The notes under the pieces: model-generated
What the model was told of the DNA's origin: nothing
The model's input: the letters and a program-made list of their open reading frames with translations, nothing else
Database searches by the model: none
Part shown: positions 9,874 to 20,406 of the stretch, piece after piece
Layout of the letters: each line of letters starts with the position of its first letter
Numbering within the stretch: position 1 is the stretch's first letter
Made by a program: the position numbers and the translations under genes
Origin: a virus
IMG/VR virus record: IMGVR_UViG_3300042520_001372
DNA: 64,000 bases
Reading direction: 5' to 3' (one strand)

Positions 9874-9917
9874 AAGTATACCCGTTCACTGTCCGGGGCA
9901 GGTGTTTGTTATAAATA
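9874..9917 (-). promoter_or_regulatory. TATTTATA promoter plus hairpin leader of the fibre gene
   Basis: TATTTATA at 9910-9917; leader stem CCCG/CGGG with loop GACAGUGAA. Confidence 0.55.
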
Positions 9918-9918
9918 G

Positions 9919-12900
9919 TTAGAAGTACCTAACCATGTAATTAATATCGAAAGGAGTTATCCCTGAGTTTGCAGCTGATAGCCAGGTCGGTGCTCCGTAG
10001 GTTATCGCAAAGCTTATTGCGGAAGTGTTACCGATATCTGTCGTAACTACTTCATTGATGACAGCACTTGTAGCTGCAAGAGAAACCGATACCATTATAG
10101 TTCCAACACGTTGGTTTGCACCTGTTGATGCGTCTTTTATAACGTAATCAACGAAGGCTGCATAGGTTGTACCGGGTACAAATGAAATAATATTAGTACC
10201 TGGGCCTGGACTTAGTAATGCCGGTGCTACTTCGTAGTCTATTACTGATCCGGAGATTGATAATGCTCCTCCGATATGGAGTTGCTGTTGGGGGGAGGTA
10301 GTGTTAACACCGACAAATCCTGTTGAACCGGTAACAAACATTCTTATGTTACCTGCACCGTCGGAGATGAAGATGTTACAGTTTTGAGTACCGAATCCGT
10401 TAGCTGATGCTCCACCTAAGATTACGTTACAAGCTCCTGTTGTAATACAGATACCAGATGATAGACCGATGGCTGTATTTCTGTTACCATAAGTAACATT
10501 TCTTAAAGCACTACTTCCTACAGCAGTATTATAACTGACAGCATTGTACCTTAAAGCATAGGCTCCTAAAGATGTATTATTGTTACCGACACTAGCTCTT
10601 GAGTTATTATAACCTATAGCTGTGTTATTTGATCCCCCGGTGTTGATTAATAAAGCACTTTGACCAAAAGCTGAGTTTCTTACACCGTTAACATTGTAAA
10701 ATAAAGCACCAGCACCAACAGCTGAGTTAGCGGTACCTGTTGTGTTACATCTTAAAGCACTTCCACCAACTGCTGTATTGTTATTAGCAGTATTACCTCG
10801 TAAAGCATAAAATCCAATACCTACATTACCTGAACCTATAATATTTGCTCTTAAAGCACTATGTCCTACAGCTGCGTTTTCTGCTCCAGTTGTATTAGCA
10901 ACAAGTGCTGCAAAACCCATGGCTGTGTTATTAGCGCCTGTAGTGGTAGATTCCATAGCATATGTACCAACAGCTGTATTTCCACTAACTGTATTTGCTT
11001 CTAATGCTTGATCCCCTAAAGCAGTATTTCCAGTACCTGAAATGTTTAATCTTAAAGTGCATCTACCTATAGCTGTGTTTCCGTAACCCCCAGCATTACA
11101 CCTAGCGGCACAGAAACCAACCGCTGTATTACCAGAGGCTGTATTGTCTATAAGAGCTTGAGTACCTACAGCTGTGTTTTGGGTACCTACAATATTAGAA
11201 ATCAAGGCACCACAGCCTACAGCTACGTTATTTGTTCCTGTTGTATTAGCCCTCAAAGCGGCATAACCTACTGCTGTGTTATTTGATGCTGTGTTAGCAC
11301 ATAAAGCATTTAAACCTATAGCAACGTTAGAAATACCTGTTGTATTATTTCTTAAAGAATAAACACCTAAAGCTGTGTTTGCTTGACCTGTACTGTTACA
11401 AAGTTGAGAGTACCAACCTACTGCTGTATTGTTAGATCCTGTGGTAGTAGCTTCTAAAGCACCTCTACCAATTGCTGTGTTTCCACCTGCTGTTGTATTA
11501 TTAAATAAGGCACTAGAACCTACTGCTGTATTTCTATCACCTATTGTGTTAAGTTGCAAAGCATTAGTTCCTAAGGCTGTGTTTGAACTACCAATTGTAT
11601 TTGTTGATAATGAATTAATACCTACAGCTACGTTATTTGTTCCTGTTGTATTACTTCTTAATGCACAGAAACCTACTGCTGTGTTGTTTGATGCTGTGTT
11701 ACAACGTAATGCGTTAGTTCCTAATGCTGTGTTGTTTGAACCAACAAGGTTGTAAGCTAGTGACTGGTTACCTACAGCAACGTTATTTTCTCCTGTACTA
11801 TTGTTTCTTAATGTATAATATCCAACAGCTGTATTGAGTTTTCCTGTTGTATTCAGTCTTAGTGAGAAATGTCCTATTCCCACATTTCTGGTACCAATAG
11901 TGTTAGAACATAGAGCATTAACACCAACGGCTGTGTTTGTTGTTCCGGTTGTATTACTTCTTAATGAATTGTAACCTACAGCTGTGTTGTTTGAGGCTGT
12001 GTTAGTTCTTAAAGCATAATATCCAATACCTACATTACTTGACCCTACAGTATTTGTTAATAAAGCACTTAAGCCAATAGCAATGTTTGATTTACCTGTA
12101 GTGTTGTCTCTTAAAGCATTATGACCTAGAGCTACATTATAAGTTCCTGTAGTGTTGCACCGTAAAGACTGAAAGCCTACTGCTGTGTTGTATGAGGCTG
12201 TGTTGCTTGTTAGGGCTTGGTAACCTATAGCGGTATTATTAATACCGGTTTGGTTTGCTCTTAGGGCAAATACACCAACTGCTGTGTTTTTTGTTCCTGT
12301 TGTATTACTACGTAAAGAATAGTATCCAAAAGCAGTATTGCTGTTGGCTGTATTGAACAGTAAAGAACTTCTACCCATTGCGGTATTAGAACGTCCTGTG
12401 ACATTACTGTACAAGGCTTGTCTACCTACTGCTGTGTTATTGTATCCTGTAGTGTTAAGTTGAAGGGCTCCTAAACCTACTGCTGTGTTATCAACACCTG
12501 TTGTATTATTACGTAAAGCAAAAGCACCAAGGGCAGTATTACATCCTCCTATTGTAGTATTAACTAAAGCACAAGTACCTACAGCTACGTTGTTTGTTCC
12601 TGTTGTATTTTGTCTTAGTGAACAAAAACCTACTGCTGTGTTACTTGTTCCTGTTGTATTACTTCTTAATGTATAAAAACCTACAGCAGTATTACTATTA
12701 GCTGTATTATACAACATTGATTGGAAACCAACAGCTGTATTGTTTGAACCAGCATTTCCAACCTGCATTGCACTAGTTCCTACAGCCACGTTACTAGCAC
12801 CACCTGTGTTTGCACATAAAGCAGCACCACCAAGGGCTGTGTTGTAGTTACCAGTAATGTTTCTTAATGTATTTGTACCTACACCCACGTTGTAGTTGTT

Positions 12901-15900
12901 GGCAGTAGCTGAGTTTAAAGAGTTTACACCAATACCAACATTATTGCTACCGTTTGTATTAGCTATTAAAGCATTTATACCTATAGAAACGTTATTAACT
13001 CCGGTTGTATTACATCTTAAAGTATTATATCCTAAAGCCGTATTATTAATACCGGTTGTATTACCTATTAAGGTATATTTACCAACACCGGTGTTACCTG
13101 TTCCGACTGTATTACTTTCTAACACTCTAAAACCTACGGCAGTATTATGTACACCTGTTGTATTACTAGATAACGCGCAAGTACCTACTGCTGTGTTAGA
13201 TGAAGCTGTATTAATAAGCAAAGACCTAAAACCTAACGATACGTTATTATCACCGGTAATGTTACATATAAGAGCTTGTGTTCCTATAGCAGTGTTACGG
13301 TTACCTGTAGTAATTTTACATGCTGTTTCATAACCTAAAGCTACGTTATTTATACCTCCGGTATTGTTAAATAATGATAATGTACCAACTGAAGTATTAT
13401 TAATACCTGTTGTGTTACATTTTAAAGAATTTGAACCTACTGAAACGTTATATTTACCTGTTGTATTACTTCGTAAAGCACTATATCCAACAGCTGTATT
13501 GTTTGATGCTGTGTTAGAGAATAAAGATCTAAATCCAAGAGCTGTATTATTTGTTCCGGCAACATTAGAATATAAAGCACCGCAACCCATGGCAATATTA
13601 TAACTACCGCCTTGGTTTAATCTCATTGAGAGATTACCAACAGTTACGTTTTGTACACCTGTAGTGTTTGAACATAAAGCATAGTAACCTAAACCTACGT
13701 TACCAACACCAGTAGAATTACAACGTAAGGAACTACGGCCTGCGGCTACGTTTCTACAACCTGTTAAGTTAGCAATCATAGAACTATACCCTATAGCTGT
13801 ATTTGCTACTCCGGAAGTGTTAAGAGCTAAGGCATTATAACCTACTGCTGTATTAGCACCCCCTGTTGTATTATCTCGAAGGGCTTGAAAACCTAAAGCT
13901 GTATTTTGAACACCTGTAGTATTATTTCTTAATGCACAGAAACCTACTGCTGTGTTGTTTGATGCTGTATTTGCTTGAAGTGCTCTAGAACCTAAAGCTG
14001 TATTATTATTACCACTTATATTACTATTTAAAGAATCGTTACCTACTGATGTATTACAAGAGCCTACAGTAGTGTATCTTAAGGCTGATATACCTATTGC
14101 TGTATTTAAAACACCTGTAGTATTACTTTGAAGAGATAAAGCACCTAATGAAGTATTATATGAACCAATAGTGTTGTTTGACAATGATGTAACACCAACA
14201 GCTGTATTAAGTGTTCCTGTTGTATTACTTCTTAATGCACAAAAACCAATGGTTGTGTTGTTGGATGCTGTATTGCAGTTTAGACTATAATGTCCTAAAG
14301 CTGTATTATTAACCCCTGTTGTATTATACTGTAAAGCACCTCCGCCTATTGCTGTATTTTTAATTCCTACTGTATTATACTGTAAAGCACTAGTACCTAC
14401 AGCAGTGTTCTGTGCTCCTGTTGTATTACTTCTTAACGCTAGAGACCCTAAAGCAACATTATATAATCCTGTTGTATTACTTCTCAATGCACAGAAACCT
14501 ACTGCTGTGTTGTTTGAGGCTGTGTTACAAGTTAAAGCAAAAGCACCAACAGCTGTATTTTTTCCTCCTGTTGTTGTTCCATATAATGTTCTGTGTCCAA
14601 AACCAGCATTGTACGCTCCTGTGGTGTTGCTTGATACAGAAAGATATCCAAAAGCACTATTATCAAATCCAGTTGTATTAGAATATAATGCTCCATTACC
14701 TAAAGCATTGTTTCTAAAACCAGTAGTATTAAGTATTAAAGCTACTCTACCAACAGCTACGTTATTAGCACCTGTTGTATTACATCTTAATGCACTATTA
14801 CCTAAAGCAGTATTGTTAAATCCAATAGTATTATTTTGTAAAGCTACAGCACCAACAGCAGTATTATTAAAACCTGTTGTATTGGTAAATAAAGCACTAG
14901 CACCTAATGATGTATTATATGCTCCTGTTGTATTAGTTCTTAAGGCATTAACACCAACTGCTGTATTGTTTACTCCTGTTGTATTATTTCTTAATGATAA
15001 GTATCCGACTGCTGTATTGTTAGATACTGTGTTGCAGAATAATGAAAAGAATCCTAGAGCTGTATTATTTGTTCCTACAGTATTATACTGTAAACTACCA
15101 AATCCTACTGCGGTATTATTTGCTCCGGTAGTATTGCAGAACATAGAACCTCTACCAATTGCTGTGTTAAAAGCACCTCCTGTATTAAATCTAAGAGATC
15201 CTAAACCAACAGCTGTATTTTCAGTTCCTGTTGTATTTACACATAAAGATTGAAAACCTATTGCTGTATTACATACACCTACAGTATTATTTTGTAAAGA
15301 ATATGTACCTACGGCTGTATTTAAAATACCTGTAGTGTTAAACTTTAAGGCTTGTGTACCTACAGCGGTATTACTTACTCCAGAAGTGTTATAAGCTAGA
15401 GCTAATTGACCTATACCAACATTATTAGCACCTGTATTATTTCTTAAAGCGTCAGTACCTATACCTATAGTATTTCCAATACCTGGACTGGCATACATTG
15501 CTGCTTCTCCAATAGCAATAACAGTATTTCCTGTAACTGAGCCTGCTGCTCTATAACCAATAGCAATATTGTTTGTACCGGCGGTATTTGCTGTTAAAGA
15601 ATTAGTACCAATTGCTATGTTTTGATTACCGGTTGTGTTACATCTTAGTGCTTTATAACCTAGAGCTACGTTTCTGCATCCTGCTGTATTATTTCTTAAT
15701 GCACAGAAACCTACTGCTGTGTTATTAGAGGCTGTGTTAGAAAGAAGTGTATAAAATCCAACTGCTGTATTACTTTTACCTATAGTGTTACTATATAAAC
15801 TACCATCACCAACAGCAGTATTATAATTACCAGTAGTATTATTTCTTAATGATACCCTACCTACAGCTGTATTTTGACTACCTAGAGTATTATTATATAA

Positions 15901-18600
15901 AGTAGATCTACCTAAAGCGGTATTATTGGAACCTACAGTATTATTTCTTAAAGCACTATTTCCTACAGCAATGTTATTAGTACCTGTTGTATTAACATTA
16001 AGAGCACCATGACCTACTGCCATGTTTTCAGAGGCAGTACTTACACGTAAAGCACTATTACCTATAGCAATGTTTTGTGAGGCTGTTGTTATACAATATA
16101 AAGCACAGTTACCAATAGATAAGTTAAAAGTACCTGTTGTTGTTCTTAATTGAGATAATATACCAACTCCTATGTTATTATTACCGGTTGTATTGCTTGA
16201 TAATGCTCCTCCACCTAAAGCAGTATTATATTGTCCTATTGTGTTGCTAGAAAGTGCACCTGAACCAACTGCTGTATTTGAACCTCCTGTGGTATTAGCT
16301 AACAAAGCATTAGCACCTACTGCAGTATTACCACTACCTATAGTATTTAAAGCTAAACTACTAGCTCCTAATGCTGTATTGTATGTTCCTGTGGTGTTAT
16401 TTCTTAAAGAAAGAGTTCCTAATGCAGTATTACAAAAACCTACAGTGTTACACTGTAATGATAAAGCGCCAACAGCAGTATTTCTTTTTCCTGTAGTGTT
16501 GTTTTGTAAAGCTGATGATCCTAAAGCTGCATTATAGTATCCTACTGTATTACTTCTTAATGAACAAAATCCTACGGCTGTATTATTTGATGCTGTATTG
16601 CAAAATAAAGCTAATTTACCAATAGCAACATTATTACTACCGACTGTATTGTTAGTTAATGATTGGTCTCCTACTGCTGTATTACAATTACCTGTGGTAT
16701 TGTAAAAACCAGAATCCATCCCTACTGATACATTATTTGAACCTATTGTATTAAATCTTAAAGATTCAGTACCAATCGCTACATTTCTAAGACCGGTTGT
16801 ATTACTTCTTAAACTATAGAAACCTACTGCTGTATTGTTTGAAGCTGTGTTAGATAATAATGATTGAACACCAACTGCTGTATTACTATTACCTGTTGTA
16901 TTAGAAGTTAAAGATTGGTGACCTAGAGCAGTATTAGAAGCACCTACTGTATTAGAAAATAAAGTATTAAAACCAACGGCCGTATTATTTACACCTGTTG
17001 TAGTACCTCCTAAAGCATTAATACCTATTGCTACGTTTGAGCCTGCTGTGCTATTCCTTAAGGCATAGTCTCCAATTGCAGTACTATAACACCCAGTTAC
17101 ATTTAATGCTAAAGCACAAAATCCAAATGCATTATTTCTTCTACCAACTGTATTAGAAACAAGCGCACTTCTACCTACTGCTGTGTTTACATCTCCTGTT
17201 GTATTACTTCTTAATGCACAGAAGCCGACTGCTGTGTTGTTTGATGCTGTGTTAGCACGTAAAGCGCTATCACCAACAGCAACATTACTAGAGGCCCCTG
17301 TACTACTATAAGCTGCGTAATAACCTAATGCTACGTTTGAACCACCGGTTGTATTAGCGTATAATGCTGTTCTACCTACAGCTGTATTTCTAGTACCTAT
17401 TGTGTTGTTGCGTAGTGTAATTACACCTACCGCTACGTTATTTGTTCCTGTGGTATTACTTCTTAATGCACAGAAGCCGACTGCTGTATTGTTTGATGCT
17501 GTGTTACAAAGTAATGATTGATATCCTAGCGCTGTATTATTATTACCGGCGCTATTAGAAAAAAGTGCTTGAGTACCAACAGCGGTATTTAAAGTTCCTG
17601 TAGTATTGTTAGGTAATGTTTCTTTACCAACAGCTACGTTATTTGATGCTGTATTTTGAACAAGTGCATTATAACCAAGTGCGGTGTTGTTATTACCGCC
17701 TGTATTAGCATAAAGTGCTGCCCGACCTAATGCTGTATTAAATGCACCTGTAGTATTATTTCGAAGTGATAATGCTCCTAAAGCTGTGTTACAAATACCT
17801 GTTGTATTTTGTTGGAGTGATTGTTGTCCAACTGCTACATTACTTCTACCAGTTATATTAGAGCAAAGAGCAGATACACCTATAGATACGTTATTTGTAC
17901 CTGTTGTATTATTCTGCAATGCACTAGAACCAATAGCTGTATTACTGTAACCTATTGTGTTTTGAGACATAGCCCCAAAACCTACAGAAGTATTACCTCC
18001 TCCAATTGTGTTACATATTAAACTATTAAGACCTATAGATGTGTTGTTTGTTCCTACTGTATTACATAATAAACTATTAAGACCTACAGCTGTGTTGTTT
18101 ACTCCTGTTGTATTAAATAATAAAGCATTTTGACCTAAAGCTGTGTTATTTGCTCCTGTTGTATTTGAAAAAAGAGCTTGGTTTCCAATACCTGTATTTC
18201 CAGTTCCTGTTGTGTTATTTCTTAATACACAAAAACCTATTGCAGTGTTACTAGAAACACTTCCTCCTCCTAATCCAACACTAACACTATTAAATGTTGA
18301 ATCTAAAGTAGATGTAGTATTACCGGTAATTGCTAAAGTCGAACCGTTAAAGGTAGCATTTGCTTCACCGTTAATAGCCGGAGTACCAGTTGCTGTTAAA
18401 AGGAAATTATCTGTATTGTTGGTAATGTTTACTGATCCTGATACAAATGAAGCAGTTAGTGCATAAGAAGCAGAAATGGCAAACGAGGCTGTACCGAATA
18501 AAGAGCCTGTAAATGATTGTGCTGTTACATTTTGAGTAACATTAAGTGAATTCAATGAGGCATCAGACCCCGATACAATCAGTTTTCTCCAATTTGGCAT
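9919..18600 (-). CDS. Giant repeat fibre protein (2893 aa), paralogue of 1861-9873 with a different C-terminal domain
   Basis: Same 14-aa repeats; shares CNVILG...NIFISDGAGNIRMFVTGSTGFVGV and then diverges; no S74 motif. Confidence 0.85.
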   Translation of the reverse strand: MPNWRKLIVSGSDASLNSLNVTQNVTAQSFTGSLFGTASFAISASYALTASFVSGSVNITNNTDNFLLTATGTPAINGEANATFNGSTLAITGNTTSTLDSTFNSVSVGLGGGSVSSNTAIGFCVLRNNTTGTGNTGIGNQALFSNTTGANNTALGQNALLFNTTGVNNTAVGLNSLLCNTVGTNNTSIGLNSLICNTIGGGNTSVGFGAMSQNTIGYSNTAIGSSALQNNTTGTNNVSIGVSALCSNITGRSNVAVGQQSLQQNTTGICNTALGALSLRNNTTGAFNTALGRAALYANTGGNNNTALGYNALVQNTASNNVAVGKETLPNNTTGTLNTAVGTQALFSNSAGNNNTALGYQSLLCNTASNNTAVGFCALRSNTTGTNNVAVGVITLRNNTIGTRNTAVGRTALYANTTGGSNVALGYYAAYSSTGASSNVAVGDSALRANTASNNTAVGFCALRSNTTGDVNTAVGRSALVSNTVGRRNNAFGFCALALNVTGCYSTAIGDYALRNSTAGSNVAIGINALGGTTTGVNNTAVGFNTLFSNTVGASNTALGHQSLTSNTTGNSNTAVGVQSLLSNTASNNTAVGFYSLRSNTTGLRNVAIGTESLRFNTIGSNNVSVGMDSGFYNTTGNCNTAVGDQSLTNNTVGSNNVAIGKLALFCNTASNNTAVGFCSLRSNTVGYYNAALGSSALQNNTTGKRNTAVGALSLQCNTVGFCNTALGTLSLRNNTTGTYNTALGASSLALNTIGSGNTAVGANALLANTTGGSNTAVGSGALSSNTIGQYNTALGGGALSSNTTGNNNIGVGILSQLRTTTGTFNLSIGNCALYCITTASQNIAIGNSALRVSTASENMAVGHGALNVNTTGTNNIAVGNSALRNNTVGSNNTALGRSTLYNNTLGSQNTAVGRVSLRNNTTGNYNTAVGDGSLYSNTIGKSNTAVGFYTLLSNTASNNTAVGFCALRNNTAGCRNVALGYKALRCNTTGNQNIAIGTNSLTANTAGTNNIAIGYRAAGSVTGNTVIAIGEAAMYASPGIGNTIGIGTDALRNNTGANNVGIGQLALAYNTSGVSNTAVGTQALKFNTTGILNTAVGTYSLQNNTVGVCNTAIGFQSLCVNTTGTENTAVGLGSLRFNTGGAFNTAIGRGSMFCNTTGANNTAVGFGSLQYNTVGTNNTALGFFSLFCNTVSNNTAVGYLSLRNNTTGVNNTAVGVNALRTNTTGAYNTSLGASALFTNTTGFNNTAVGAVALQNNTIGFNNTALGNSALRCNTTGANNVAVGRVALILNTTGFRNNALGNGALYSNTTGFDNSAFGYLSVSSNTTGAYNAGFGHRTLYGTTTGGKNTAVGAFALTCNTASNNTAVGFCALRSNTTGLYNVALGSLALRSNTTGAQNTAVGTSALQYNTVGIKNTAIGGGALQYNTTGVNNTALGHYSLNCNTASNNTTIGFCALRSNTTGTLNTAVGVTSLSNNTIGSYNTSLGALSLQSNTTGVLNTAIGISALRYTTVGSCNTSVGNDSLNSNISGNNNTALGSRALQANTASNNTAVGFCALRNNTTGVQNTALGFQALRDNTTGGANTAVGYNALALNTSGVANTAIGYSSMIANLTGCRNVAAGRSSLRCNSTGVGNVGLGYYALCSNTTGVQNVTVGNLSMRLNQGGSYNIAMGCGALYSNVAGTNNTALGFRSLFSNTASNNTAVGYSALRSNTTGKYNVSVGSNSLKCNTTGINNTSVGTLSLFNNTGGINNVALGYETACKITTGNRNTAIGTQALICNITGDNNVSLGFRSLLINTASSNTAVGTCALSSNTTGVHNTAVGFRVLESNTVGTGNTGVGKYTLIGNTTGINNTALGYNTLRCNTTGVNNVSIGINALIANTNGSNNVGIGVNSLNSATANNYNVGVGTNTLRNITGNYNTALGGAALCANTGGASNVAVGTSAMQVGNAGSNNTAVGFQSMLYNTANSNTAVGFYTLRSNTTGTSNTAVGFCSLRQNTTGTNNVAVGTCALVNTTIGGCNTALGAFALRNNTTGVDNTAVGLGALQLNTTGYNNTAVGRQALYSNVTGRSNTAMGRSSLLFNTANSNTAFGYYSLRSNTTGTKNTAVGVFALRANQTGINNTAIGYQALTSNTASYNTAVGFQSLRCNTTGTYNVALGHNALRDNTTGKSNIAIGLSALLTNTVGSSNVGIGYYALRTNTASNNTAVGYNSLRSNTTGTTNTAVGVNALCSNTIGTRNVGIGHFSLRLNTTGKLNTAVGYYTLRNNSTGENNVAVGNQSLAYNLVGSNNTALGTNALRCNTASNNTAVGFCALRSNTTGTNNVAVGINSLSTNTIGSSNTALGTNALQLNTIGDRNTAVGSSALFNNTTAGGNTAIGRGALEATTTGSNNTAVGWYSQLCNSTGQANTALGVYSLRNNTTGISNVAIGLNALCANTASNNTAVGYAALRANTTGTNNVAVGCGALISNIVGTQNTAVGTQALIDNTASGNTAVGFCAARCNAGGYGNTAIGRCTLRLNISGTGNTALGDQALEANTVSGNTAVGTYAMESTTTGANNTAMGFAALVANTTGAENAAVGHSALRANIIGSGNVGIGFYALRGNTANNNTAVGGSALRCNTTGTANSAVGAGALFYNVNGVRNSAFGQSALLINTGGSNNTAIGYNNSRASVGNNNTSLGAYALRYNAVSYNTAVGSSALRNVTYGNRNTAIGLSSGICITTGACNVILGGASANGFGTQNCNIFISDGAGNIRMFVTGSTGFVGVNTTSPQQQLHIGGALSISGSVIDYEVAPALLSPGPGTNIISFVPGTTYAAFVDYVIKDASTGANQRVGTIMVSVSLAATSAVINEVVTTDIGNTSAISFAITYGAPTWLSAANSGITPFDINYMVRYF
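10430..18270 (-). repeat. In-frame 14-aa tandem repeat array
   Basis: Visible directly; boundaries approximate. Confidence 0.9.
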
Positions 18601-18681
18601 ATATATACTCCTTTTGCGGTTAGAAACAGCGACGTTGCTGCCTACTTCCCTTGCGGGCCAACATTAGGTTTGTTATAAATA
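18601..18681 (-). promoter_or_regulatory. TATTTATA promoter plus structured 5' leader (three-way junction) and SD-like AAGGAG
   Basis: P1 GUUGG/CUAAC, P2 CCC-GCAA-GGG, P3 GGCAGC/GCUGUU; AAGGAG at 18608-18613. Confidence 0.6.
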
Positions 18682-18682
18682 T

Positions 18683-18910
18683 TTAAGATTTCAACTTACT
18701 TGTCGTATTCTTCTCAACAAGTTTTTGAAGCTCCTCTTGTTTTTTAGCTTCTTCAGCTTCTATAGTGAATTGAATGTTCATTATAGCTTCATCAAGTTTA
18801 TCCTGTAATCCTGCAATCACTCTTGCACTCTTTCCAGATATCTGAATAATATCTAGAGATTGTCTCATAATAGCGATTTCTTCCGGAGAAAGTCCAATTT
18901 CGTAATTCAT
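18683..18910 (-). CDS. Small helical protein, possible fibre assembly factor
   Basis: 75-aa ORF; similar to its neighbour (LSPEE...ISG...LQDKL). Confidence 0.6.
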   Translation of the reverse strand: MNYEIGLSPEEIAIMRQSLDIIQISGKSARVIAGLQDKLDEAIMNIQFTIEAEEAKKQEELQKLVEKNTTSKLKS

Positions 18911-18912
18911 AA

Positions 18913-19125
18913 TTATTTACTAATAATATAATGGTTTTGAAGCTTTATTACAAGCTTATATAACATTTCAATTGCTTCTCCTTGAAAAGTAGACTGTTTG
19001 ATCATAGAAAGTAGGAACTGAAGTTCTTCTCTTGTGAGTGAATGATCCTGAGTAACAGGAGATAGGGGTTGTGGTTGACTGATTTGTTCAGAACCAACGA
19101 CTAGATTGTCTGCTTTTAGTGCCAT
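18913..19125 (-). CDS. Small helical protein, possible fibre assembly factor
   Basis: 70-aa ORF (LTREE...FQG...LVIKL). Confidence 0.6.
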   Translation of the reverse strand: MALKADNLVVGSEQISQPQPLSPVTQDHSLTREELQFLLSMIKQSTFQGEAIEMLYKLVIKLQNHYIISK

Positions 19126-19134
19126 AAACTTTTA

Positions 19135-20406
19135 TTAACTGTACATATAAATATCCCCGTTTGACGAGTTTACGTATACGTTGCCAAAACCATTAGTAGC
19201 TCCACCCCATGTTGGATTTGCTGCAGGAGCACCGGCTGCTGTTTTAGCAGATACTACGTACTCGTCGGCAGTTAAGGCGGTAGCCGTTCCGATGACATCG
19301 TATGCCATTGCAAAACGACCGTAAGTACCTGTTGAACTAGCTTCTAAGTAGAAGGCAGAACCTGATCCGGCGGCATTATATTGAGTAACCCATCCTGAAT
19401 CTGCTAAGGTTGTTGACCCTGAGTTGATGAGAATAAACTTATCCCTTACTGTTAAGTTATCAACATTGGTAAATGAAGCAGTACCAGCAACCGTTAAGTC
19501 ACCTCCGATAACTGCGTTTCCTGTAGTGCTTAAACTACCGAAGTTTGCAGTACCTGTGAATGTTGGTGATCCTGCAAATACTAATGCACCAGTTCCTGTT
19601 TCATCGGTTACTGCTGCTGCTAAGTTAGCAGATGATGGAGTTGTTAAAAAGGTAGCAATACCTGTTCCTAGGCCGGACACACCAGTTGAGATTGGTAATC
19701 CAGTAGCGTTAGTTAAAGTACCACTAGAAGGAGTACCTAATACTCCGCCATTAATTAATATTGATCCAGCAGAACCAGCATTAAACGCTAATGCAGTTGC
19801 AACACCTGTACCTAGTCCAGATACACCGGTTGAAATTGGTAGACCAGTTGCGTTAGTTAGAGTACCTGAGGATGGTGTTCCTAATGCGCCGTTAAATGTA
19901 ACTATACCACCGGCAGTAGATGCATTGAGAGCTAAAGAGGAAGCAACACCTGTTCCTAATCCGGAAACATCAGTGCTGATTGCAACAGAGTTAGGTTGGA
20001 TCGTTGCTACACCTAAAGAACTAACTAAAATATCACCGGAAATCCCTGCAAAAGATGCAGAGGTAAACTGAGAGACTGTAGCGAACTTATTTGAACCATC
20101 GTTTACAAAAACCTGCGTTGTTGGAGCGATTGGAGTTAGCTGCGTTACTGGGAATATTGCAGTTGCGGTTACTCCGGTTAACCCTGCACCGTTACCGAAG
20201 AACGATCCTGAGAAAGAACCTGATATTGATACACCGGATGCACCAGTGGTCGCTAAGATATTACCAGTACCGTTGATTGCAGTAGTTGATAAGTTTCCAG
20301 CGGATCCACCGCCGATTACGACCTGCCCTGATGTCAGGTTGTCTACCTGTAAAGCAGCAAGTGCTGCACTACTACCGGAGACTACTACTTTTTTCCAACT
20401 TGCCAT
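19135..20406 (-). CDS. Fibre/virion structural protein
   Basis: Gly/Thr/Ser-rich; internal repeat GTPSSGTLTNATGLPISTGVSGLGTG; N-terminus MASWKKVVVSGS resembles MPNWRKLIVSGS of the giant fibre. Confidence 0.7.
   Translation of the reverse strand: MASWKKVVVSGSSAALAALQVDNLTSGQVVIGGGSAGNLSTTAINGTGNILATTGASGVSISGSFSGSFFGNGAGLTGVTATAIFPVTQLTPIAPTTQVFVNDGSNKFATVSQFTSASFAGISGDILVSSLGVATIQPNSVAISTDVSGLGTGVASSLALNASTAGGIVTFNGALGTPSSGTLTNATGLPISTGVSGLGTGVATALAFNAGSAGSILINGGVLGTPSSGTLTNATGLPISTGVSGLGTGIATFLTTPSSANLAAAVTDETGTGALVFAGSPTFTGTANFGSLSTTGNAVIGGDLTVAGTASFTNVDNLTVRDKFILINSGSTTLADSGWVTQYNAAGSGSAFYLEASSTGTYGRFAMAYDVIGTATALTADEYVVSAKTAAGAPAANPTWGGATNGFGNVYVNSSNGDIYMYS

Follow-up and report, generated by a model that had tools for sequence, protein, structure and literature searches.

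A covarying three-way-junction RNA upstream of fibre-like genes in Immutovirus-related phages, a candidate translational operator

A leader RNA element located immediately upstream of a large fibre-like gene in a phage genome was found to belong to a real RNA family that is not represented in Rfam. At least 145 distinct copies of this RNA were parsed, all of which are positioned 12–33 nt upstream of the AUG of fibre-like genes commencing with MP(N/S)W(K/R)K, and covariation among these copies shows a shared fold, a compact three-way junction. It looks as though several phage lineages have separately wired this RNA to hide the start of the fibre gene, in which case it would represent an off-switch for fibre production. 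By analogy with known phage leaders, and with modest confidence, we favour a translational operator in which the folded junction would hide the start and a protein repressor would be the ligand.

The element was identified in a 64-kb stretch of viral DNA (64,000 nt in total; referred to here as the window), which is part of a complete phage genome of 166,276 bp (G000). In its major capsid protein, this phage shares 56% identity with Flavobacterium phage vB_FspM_immuto, suggestive of a Bacteroidota host. The element occupies an 82-nt gap on the minus strand, between a 75-aa ORF and a gene (9919..18600, minus strand) encoding a repeat-rich, fibre-like virion protein of 2893 aa with matches to PHROG virion structural and tail spike families. 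The sequence reported for the element in a first-pass annotation of this DNA (minus strand, 18601–18673) is exact. N-terminal alignment of the fibre-like proteins revealed a conserved N-terminus, MP(N/S)W(K/R)KxIxSGS, the first 12 residues being conserved while the remainder is variable; structure prediction of this N-terminus yielded models of low confidence. The first-pass annotation had linked the RNA to the most costly virion protein, a link that is not supported across the family: the RNA also stands before shorter forms of the gene, such as the 587-aa form of immuto, and at many RNA-bearing loci the downstream gene encodes ~120–400 aa.

Upstream of the element, the same strand carries small ORF B (75 aa, 18683..18910), its paralogue small ORF A (70 aa, 18913..19125), which belongs to no known family and is predicted to form a two-helix hairpin, and a paralogous fibre-like gene, MA(S/T)WKK (19135..20406), which has the N-terminal motif in common and none of the RNA ahead of it. 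ORFs A and B constitute one helical-hairpin family with conserved E, G and K residues, in which just one basic residue is conserved, and no credible Pfam, PHROG, Atlas or PDB fold match was obtained for either; a homologue is present in Mel-JY01, a phage without the RNA. Such ORFs flank 133 of the 145 RNA copies and are thus usual, not obligatory, ORF B being an optional member of the arrangement. The suggestion that these small proteins act as the ligand of the RNA gained no positive support and is disfavoured, since they are missing from four RNA-bearing contigs and are encoded, without the RNA, by two others. At a guess, they are possibly fibre chaperones.

The element is directly preceded by TATTTATA (18674..18681, minus strand), a late-promoter-like sequence that was observed upstream of 94 of the 145 RNA copies with a modal gap of 5–6 nt. 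Genome-wide, 45 copies of TATTTATA are located on the coding strand and six on the opposite strand, often 4–5 nt before an AUG. Based on this strand bias and spacing to start codons, TATTTATA is probably a late promoter and the RNA probably constitutes the entire 5′ leader; transcription would start ~5 nt downstream of TATTTATA, at or near the 5′ end of P1, the closing helix of the junction. The motif, which we take to be the reverse complement of the T4 late promoter, is present ahead of many late genes, and its frequent placement merely 4–5 nt from the AUG suggests that late mRNAs are near-leaderless.

Carriers of the RNA are Immutovirus-related myoviruses, including the cultured Flavobacterium phage immuto_2-6A, and the capsids of carrier contigs are 53–68% identical to the G000 capsid. 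An RNA-anchored scan of viral contigs yielded at least 108 distinct matches; among the matches listed, 105 of 108 precede a gene starting with MP(N/S/A)W(K/R)K, one is a chance match, and in the remaining two an inserted endonuclease-like ORF separates the RNA from such a gene. A protein-anchored scan, blind to the RNA, retrieved 52 starts without the strict RNA pattern, corresponding to 40 RNA variants, three RNAs behind a long insert, eight upstream paralogues and one truncated sequence. In both complete genomes that carry the RNA, the covariance model located a single copy, in G000 at the window's fibre gene and in immuto_2-6A ahead of gp052 (NC_055915.1:137892-137946); in Microcystis phage Mel-JY01 it located none. 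Searches of Rfam 15 with the window, 14 loci and the immuto copy returned nothing near threshold on the element, which is thus not a known Rfam family, in agreement with its proposed novelty. No description of this RNA was found in the literature, a comparison outside which stands the viral candidate-RNA catalogue of Fremin 2023 (PMC10690425). A 15-mer scan for homologues produced mostly chance matches, as did nearly all of a pattern scan of prokaryote genomes, the single real copy of which is located on a phage-like contig (L294:4306-4371). This contig is binned as Candidatus Pelagibacter, contains a full RNA copy together with the fibre gene and is probably a mis-binned phage. At three loci (L009:1391-2008, L010:1391-2008 and L016:1415-2017), ORFs judged by eye to be homing-endonuclease-like are situated between the RNA and the fibre gene and overlap the fibre start codon, the ORF of L016 commencing with Met-Pro like the fibre. 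A further locus (L005:1965-2003) has a fibre gene with a UUG start and without the RNA element, the small ORF and the paralogue being in place.

Alignment of 92 sequences (alignment A4) supports a fold in which helix P1 is stacked on P2 without a linker, an AAG linker (J2/3) leads to P3, which contains a 2-nt bulge, and a single A (J3/1) returns to P1. In total, 95% of cells are paired, compared with 30–49% in slid controls, 12 of the 18 pairs show two-sided changes and the same 18 pairs were recovered unaided by RNAalifold. P1 is formed by 18663–18661 with 18617–18615 and by 18659–18658 with 18619–18618, separated by a bulge at 18660; its 5′ strand (18658..18663) reads UGU, bulged U and GG, and its 3′ strand (18615..18619), which is supported by covariation, reads CCGCA. 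Pair 6–79 of the alignment, in P1, is A-U in 54 sequences and G-C in 34, the pair at the junction changes from G-C to A-U in five copies, and the bulged base is U in 116, A in 25 and C in four. The P2 hairpin (18648..18657) has a GCAA loop in this copy and a variable arm, with 98% of cells paired and compensatory changes. P3 (18621..18644; 97% of cells paired) comprises a URG/CYA helix, P3a (18644–18642 with 18623–18621), followed by the 2-nt bulge on the 3′ side, G.U and C-G pairs and a variable hairpin, P3b; the R-Y pair of P3a is G-C in 108 copies and A-U in 37, with no mismatches among 145 copies. The AAG linker (18645..18647) is a near-invariant junction core and the single A (18620) is invariant in the alignment; the search patterns fixed part of this core, so that its invariance is somewhat overstated. 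All positions refer to the minus strand, as does a CCU (18666..18668) that is predicted to pair, in the constrained fold of this copy, with the AGG of a Shine–Dalgarno (SD)-like sequence as a distal extension of P1.

Two pairs alternate between G-C and A-U without mismatch and all four combinations were observed, a pattern that is incompatible with one ancestral split. Parsimony suggests ~10 and ~15 changes for the two pairs, on a weak tree with too few supported branches to give an independent-pair test power. Single-sequence folding was rejected as evidence, as the element folds no better than its shuffles (z −0.08 to −0.76), and it is thus solely through its homologues that the element stands out from chance. 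Covariation across homologues is strong and confirms the proposed three-way junction, together with P2 and the core of P3, but not the proposed GUUGG/CUAAC version of P1. The proposed UAG/CUA alternative to P1 was shown to be part of the main conserved fold, where it corresponds to P3a, and the GCAA tetraloop and repeated CCGCAA are incidental features, since P2 is variable.

In a considerable part of the family, the initiation region of the fibre gene is matched by a complementary hairpin loop. Such a loop is present in 61 of the 145 copies (60 when one mis-parse is subtracted), compared with 2.3 when paralogue start regions were used instead and 7.1 when the loops were shuffled; the other 85 copies, including the one in the window, are without a loop-to-start complement. 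The P3 loop matches AUGCC in 26 copies and the P2 loop matches UGCCA in 32, never both together, these being counts of sequences and not of events on a poorly resolved tree. Long arms nearly always carry such a loop (28/28 for P3 and 32/36 for P2), the spacer is class-specific (mode of 21 nt in the P3 class versus 17 nt in the P2 class), and the stems are variable around a constant GGC apex, with 58/58 copies having the target at the AUG. In L058 and L070, the P3 loop and its target have both changed, and the loop matches a hexamer upstream of the AUG that is located 21 nt from P1, i.e. at the modal AUG distance of the P3 class. Similarly, the endonuclease-like gene inserted in L016 begins with AUGCC and the P2 loop of this copy contains GGCA. 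The loop classes may derive from as few as two or three origins.

A different arrangement was observed in a long-leader lineage (L346, L347, L348 (about 1500–1670) and L466–L480), in which ~115 nt separate the junction from the AUG. The insert contains an internal hairpin that covaries, as well as a 9-nt strand with complementarity to P1 on its 5′ side. In models with an enforced junction, this strand was computed to pair across the AUG, and opening the start is predicted to cost 6.8–10.8 instead of 3.6–4.6 kcal/mol. The layout is kept in 10 distinct metagenome copies, two of which break an anti-P1 pair, and the members are closely related (90% identical for three aligned). According to these folding models, the insert looks like a separate expression platform. 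In ordinary leaders, by contrast, opening the start is predicted to become only slightly more costly (median of 4.0 versus 3.7 kcal/mol), no shared anti-P1 pairing with the coding start exceeded 10% on average and no covariation was detected between the P1 bulge and the Pro codon. Folding models also showed that the median P1 probability decreases from 0.85 to 0.22 once the coding start is included. In total, the computed start-site pairings perhaps stem from three or four origins, and not from 60 events. For each type of coupling, the computed pairings hide the start when the junction is folded, and since several separately arranged couplings all do so, the folded state most likely, and with fair confidence, corresponds to translation being OFF.

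In the proposed operator, the element would be the 5′ leader of a late transcript or, in lineages without a local promoter, an intercistronic leader, and its folded junction would conceal the initiation region of the fibre gene by one of several routes: P1 over the SD, a pseudoknot from the P2 or P3 loop to AUGCC or to a hexamer close by, or the anti-P1 insert. In folding models, inclusion of the coding start leaves the fold barely stable, and something would therefore have to keep it shut. The drop in P1 probability with the coding start, together with junction bases that are conserved beyond the needs of pairing, leads us to suspect a ligand, which might tentatively be supposed to stabilise the fold. 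The invariant junction would then be the putative binding site of a protein repressor, candidates for which are late phage products such as unassembled fibre, whose conserved N-terminus would make the contact, or a different virion or assembly protein, and the operator would serve to limit or time fibre synthesis. Counting against this reading are the copies without a loop-to-start complement, the small extra opening cost in ordinary leaders, the possibly few origins of the loop classes and, in the long-leader lineage, close relatedness and broken anti-P1 pairs. Autoregulation by the fibre N-terminus is conceivable, given that 12 N-terminal residues are conserved while the rest of the protein varies. 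With AA facing it, the AGU is reminiscent of a portion of a bulged-G module, a frequent protein-binding feature. Each copy of the RNA combines a conserved structure with a position near the initiation region of one gene, and by analogy the element would work most like a phage translational operator, with a protein-binding role as candidate. The T4 gene 32 pseudoknot and gene 43 hairpin are translational operators (PMC3014915), and the present RNA shares with them a structured phage leader by the initiation region, the dedication of each element to one gene and a proposed block of initiation. It differs from these operators in being a three-way junction instead of an H-type pseudoknot or single hairpin, and in preceding a virion fibre gene instead of genes for nucleic-acid-binding proteins.

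Start-hiding structures may also act without any ligand, either as a constitutive damper of initiation or by being opened by temperature or by ribosomes that complete translation of the upstream small ORF. Translational coupling is consistent with the P2-loop class, in which just one of 32 copies has a local promoter and an upstream stop codon is located 5–10 nt before the junction GG in 28 of 30, such that a terminating ribosome would melt P1, and the locus that has lost the RNA uses a UUG start. Pairing alone, however, leaves the invariant junction bases, fixed bulges and G.U pair unexplained across capsids that are 53–68% identical, and the promoter-like element just upstream of 94 copies likewise argues against this explanation, which we consider unlikely. 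Slightly less probable still is a translational OFF riboswitch, whose junction would bind a small molecule or ion and whose lineage-specific couplings would be expression platforms; if true, this would be a phage-specific riboswitch class through which the metabolite or ion state of the host sets the amount of fibre per virion. In its favour, the compact core is conserved while the arms vary, and one lineage has an anti-P1 fold that is mutually exclusive with the junction, which together represent the usual riboswitch layout; the sequence around GGAAGURG also resembles that of glutamine riboswitches. Folds that would alter access to the start were predicted computationally in the long-leader lineage and as loop–start pairings. 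Conversely, the RNA is restricted to one virion gene without metabolic gene context, model R1 gave a single high score among 80 prokaryote-genome loci, at a phage-like locus with the same fibre gene, and the junction offers just four unpaired bases and two small bulges. As set out below, the glutamine-contacting bases are also absent.

Another reading is that the RNA cleaves itself or is processed by a nuclease, and that the fibre mRNA is thereby matured or protected at its 5′ end. This would agree with a small invariant three-way junction at a transcript 5′ end or between cistrons; no Rfam ribozyme family match or known catalytic core was found and cleavage would not explain start-codon-complementary loops, which makes this reading very improbable. 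The model of the first-pass annotation, in which GUUGG/CUAAC and UAG/CUA alternate to expose or hide a functional SD in an SD-ignoring host, is scarcely credible. In its favour, the SD-like hexamer (18608..18613, minus strand), located 7 nt before the AUG, is indeed unique in the window (one of 52 ORFs with AGGAG or GGAGG 4–12 nt before the start), four of the five proposed pairs are possible in 114 of 145 copies, and in the window's copy both folds lie within ~1 kcal/mol while differing in SD exposure. All five pairs, however, hold in just 38 of 145 copies, the outer pair is broken in 53 and the middle pair in 25 of the 92 aligned sequences, no covariation specific to this helix was detected and its median ensemble probability is 0.02. 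The SD, presented as a key feature, is missing at canonical spacing in 109 of 145 copies, including that of the cultured Flavobacterium phage, the complete G000 genome encodes no bS21, and ordinary SDs are not recognised or used by ribosomes of Bacteroidia (PMC9976891). Of the proposed translational switch, a cis-regulatory function, most likely acting on initiation, is thus retained, but not the proposed switching of P1 against UAG/CUA.

Where an SD is present, it appears to follow the lineage and not the element. Genome-wide, 10 of 185 ORFs in G000 have AGGAG or GGAGG 4–12 nt before the start. Among RNA copies, an SD at canonical spacing was observed in 36 of 145, and 36% of neighbouring genes have an SD where the leader has one, compared with 5% where it does not; SD presence thus tracks lineage-wide SD use. 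In the constrained fold, the AGG of the SD is 1–5% unpaired and would provide the 3′ strand for the P1 extension, and the CCU pairing is kept in the SD-bearing near relatives L032 and L130. On these grounds (presence in a minority of copies, lineage-wide use and pairing of the AGG into P1), the SD, which is not conserved in the family, is not regarded as the defining part of the element. Seven of 19 RNA-bearing contigs, many of them incomplete, encode bS21 (L067, L070, L072, L075, L088, L106 and L115), and an SD-like stretch at the fibre gene seems commoner with bS21 (at least four of seven contigs versus one of 12 others). In Flavobacterium, rpsU is autoregulated through an extended SD (PMC9976891), and bS21-encoding phages have been described (PMC9723584); the presumed host group is alike, but G000 lacks bS21 and its SD is short and located outside the conserved element.

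The glutamine-I riboswitch (glnA RNA, RF01739) is similar to the element in its length of ~55–60 nt, three-way junction, GGAAGURG-like stretch and position near a start codon. A characteristic of glutamine-I is a loop E (AGUA opposite GAA) at the base of P3 (PMC6698751). In the present RNA, the 3′ strand reads CYAA and lacks the GAA needed for a complete loop E, the base that follows AGU is part of the R-Y Watson–Crick pair that covaries between G-C and A-U, and the GG before AAG is paired in P2. Mapped onto the element from what we take to be the glnA sequence, the ligand-binding bases C1 and G2 correspond to U (143/145) and mostly A (95/145), with C in two and G in 46 of 145 copies, so that the C1:G59 and G22/G2:C58 combination is absent. 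The 5′ end forms part of a nested P1, unlike glutamine-II (RF01704), in which it forms a pseudoknot, and neither the RF01739 nor the RF01704 model matches the element. Identity with a glutamine riboswitch was consequently rejected, there being no loop E, ligand-contacting bases or model match.

A k-junction or kink-turn was also rejected. A kink-turn requires tandem G.A and A.G pairs beside a bulge; a G.A pair could form here, but the next pair is U-A in 143 of 145 copies. Pairing of a loop with the ribosome-binding region closes the preQ1, SAM-II, cobalamin class II and rpsO pseudoknot leaders. The present RNA is comparable in that a hairpin loop pairs with the initiation region when folded; its target, however, is the start codon and Pro codon instead of the SD, and the pairing originates from P2 in some lineages and from P3 in others, fewer than half of the copies having it at all.

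To our knowledge, few phage translational operators are known beyond those of T4 and RNA phages, and no description of a translational operator for a fibre gene was found in the literature. The present family is large, its fold covaries cleanly and a single core is connected to the start codon by several routes, which provide ready-made compensatory tests. It suggests that phages of SD-ignoring hosts control initiation through RNA that pairs directly with the AUG region, which may also explain why these genes all begin with Met-Pro. As phage immuto_2-6A and Flavobacterium sp. LMO8 are a cultured pair and the phage carries the RNA, both ligand and mechanism are directly testable.

A second conserved leader hairpin was observed in the window (9874–9917, minus strand); it precedes MANEF-type fibre genes in these same phages, which favours the operator reading of the junction RNA. 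It has a GGANAGKGAA loop and a strongly covarying stem, is unrelated to the junction RNA and returned no Rfam match. The hairpin was scored in 49 of 87 distinct leaders, and more often where the stem abuts the AUG, and it probably represents another fibre-gene operator family.
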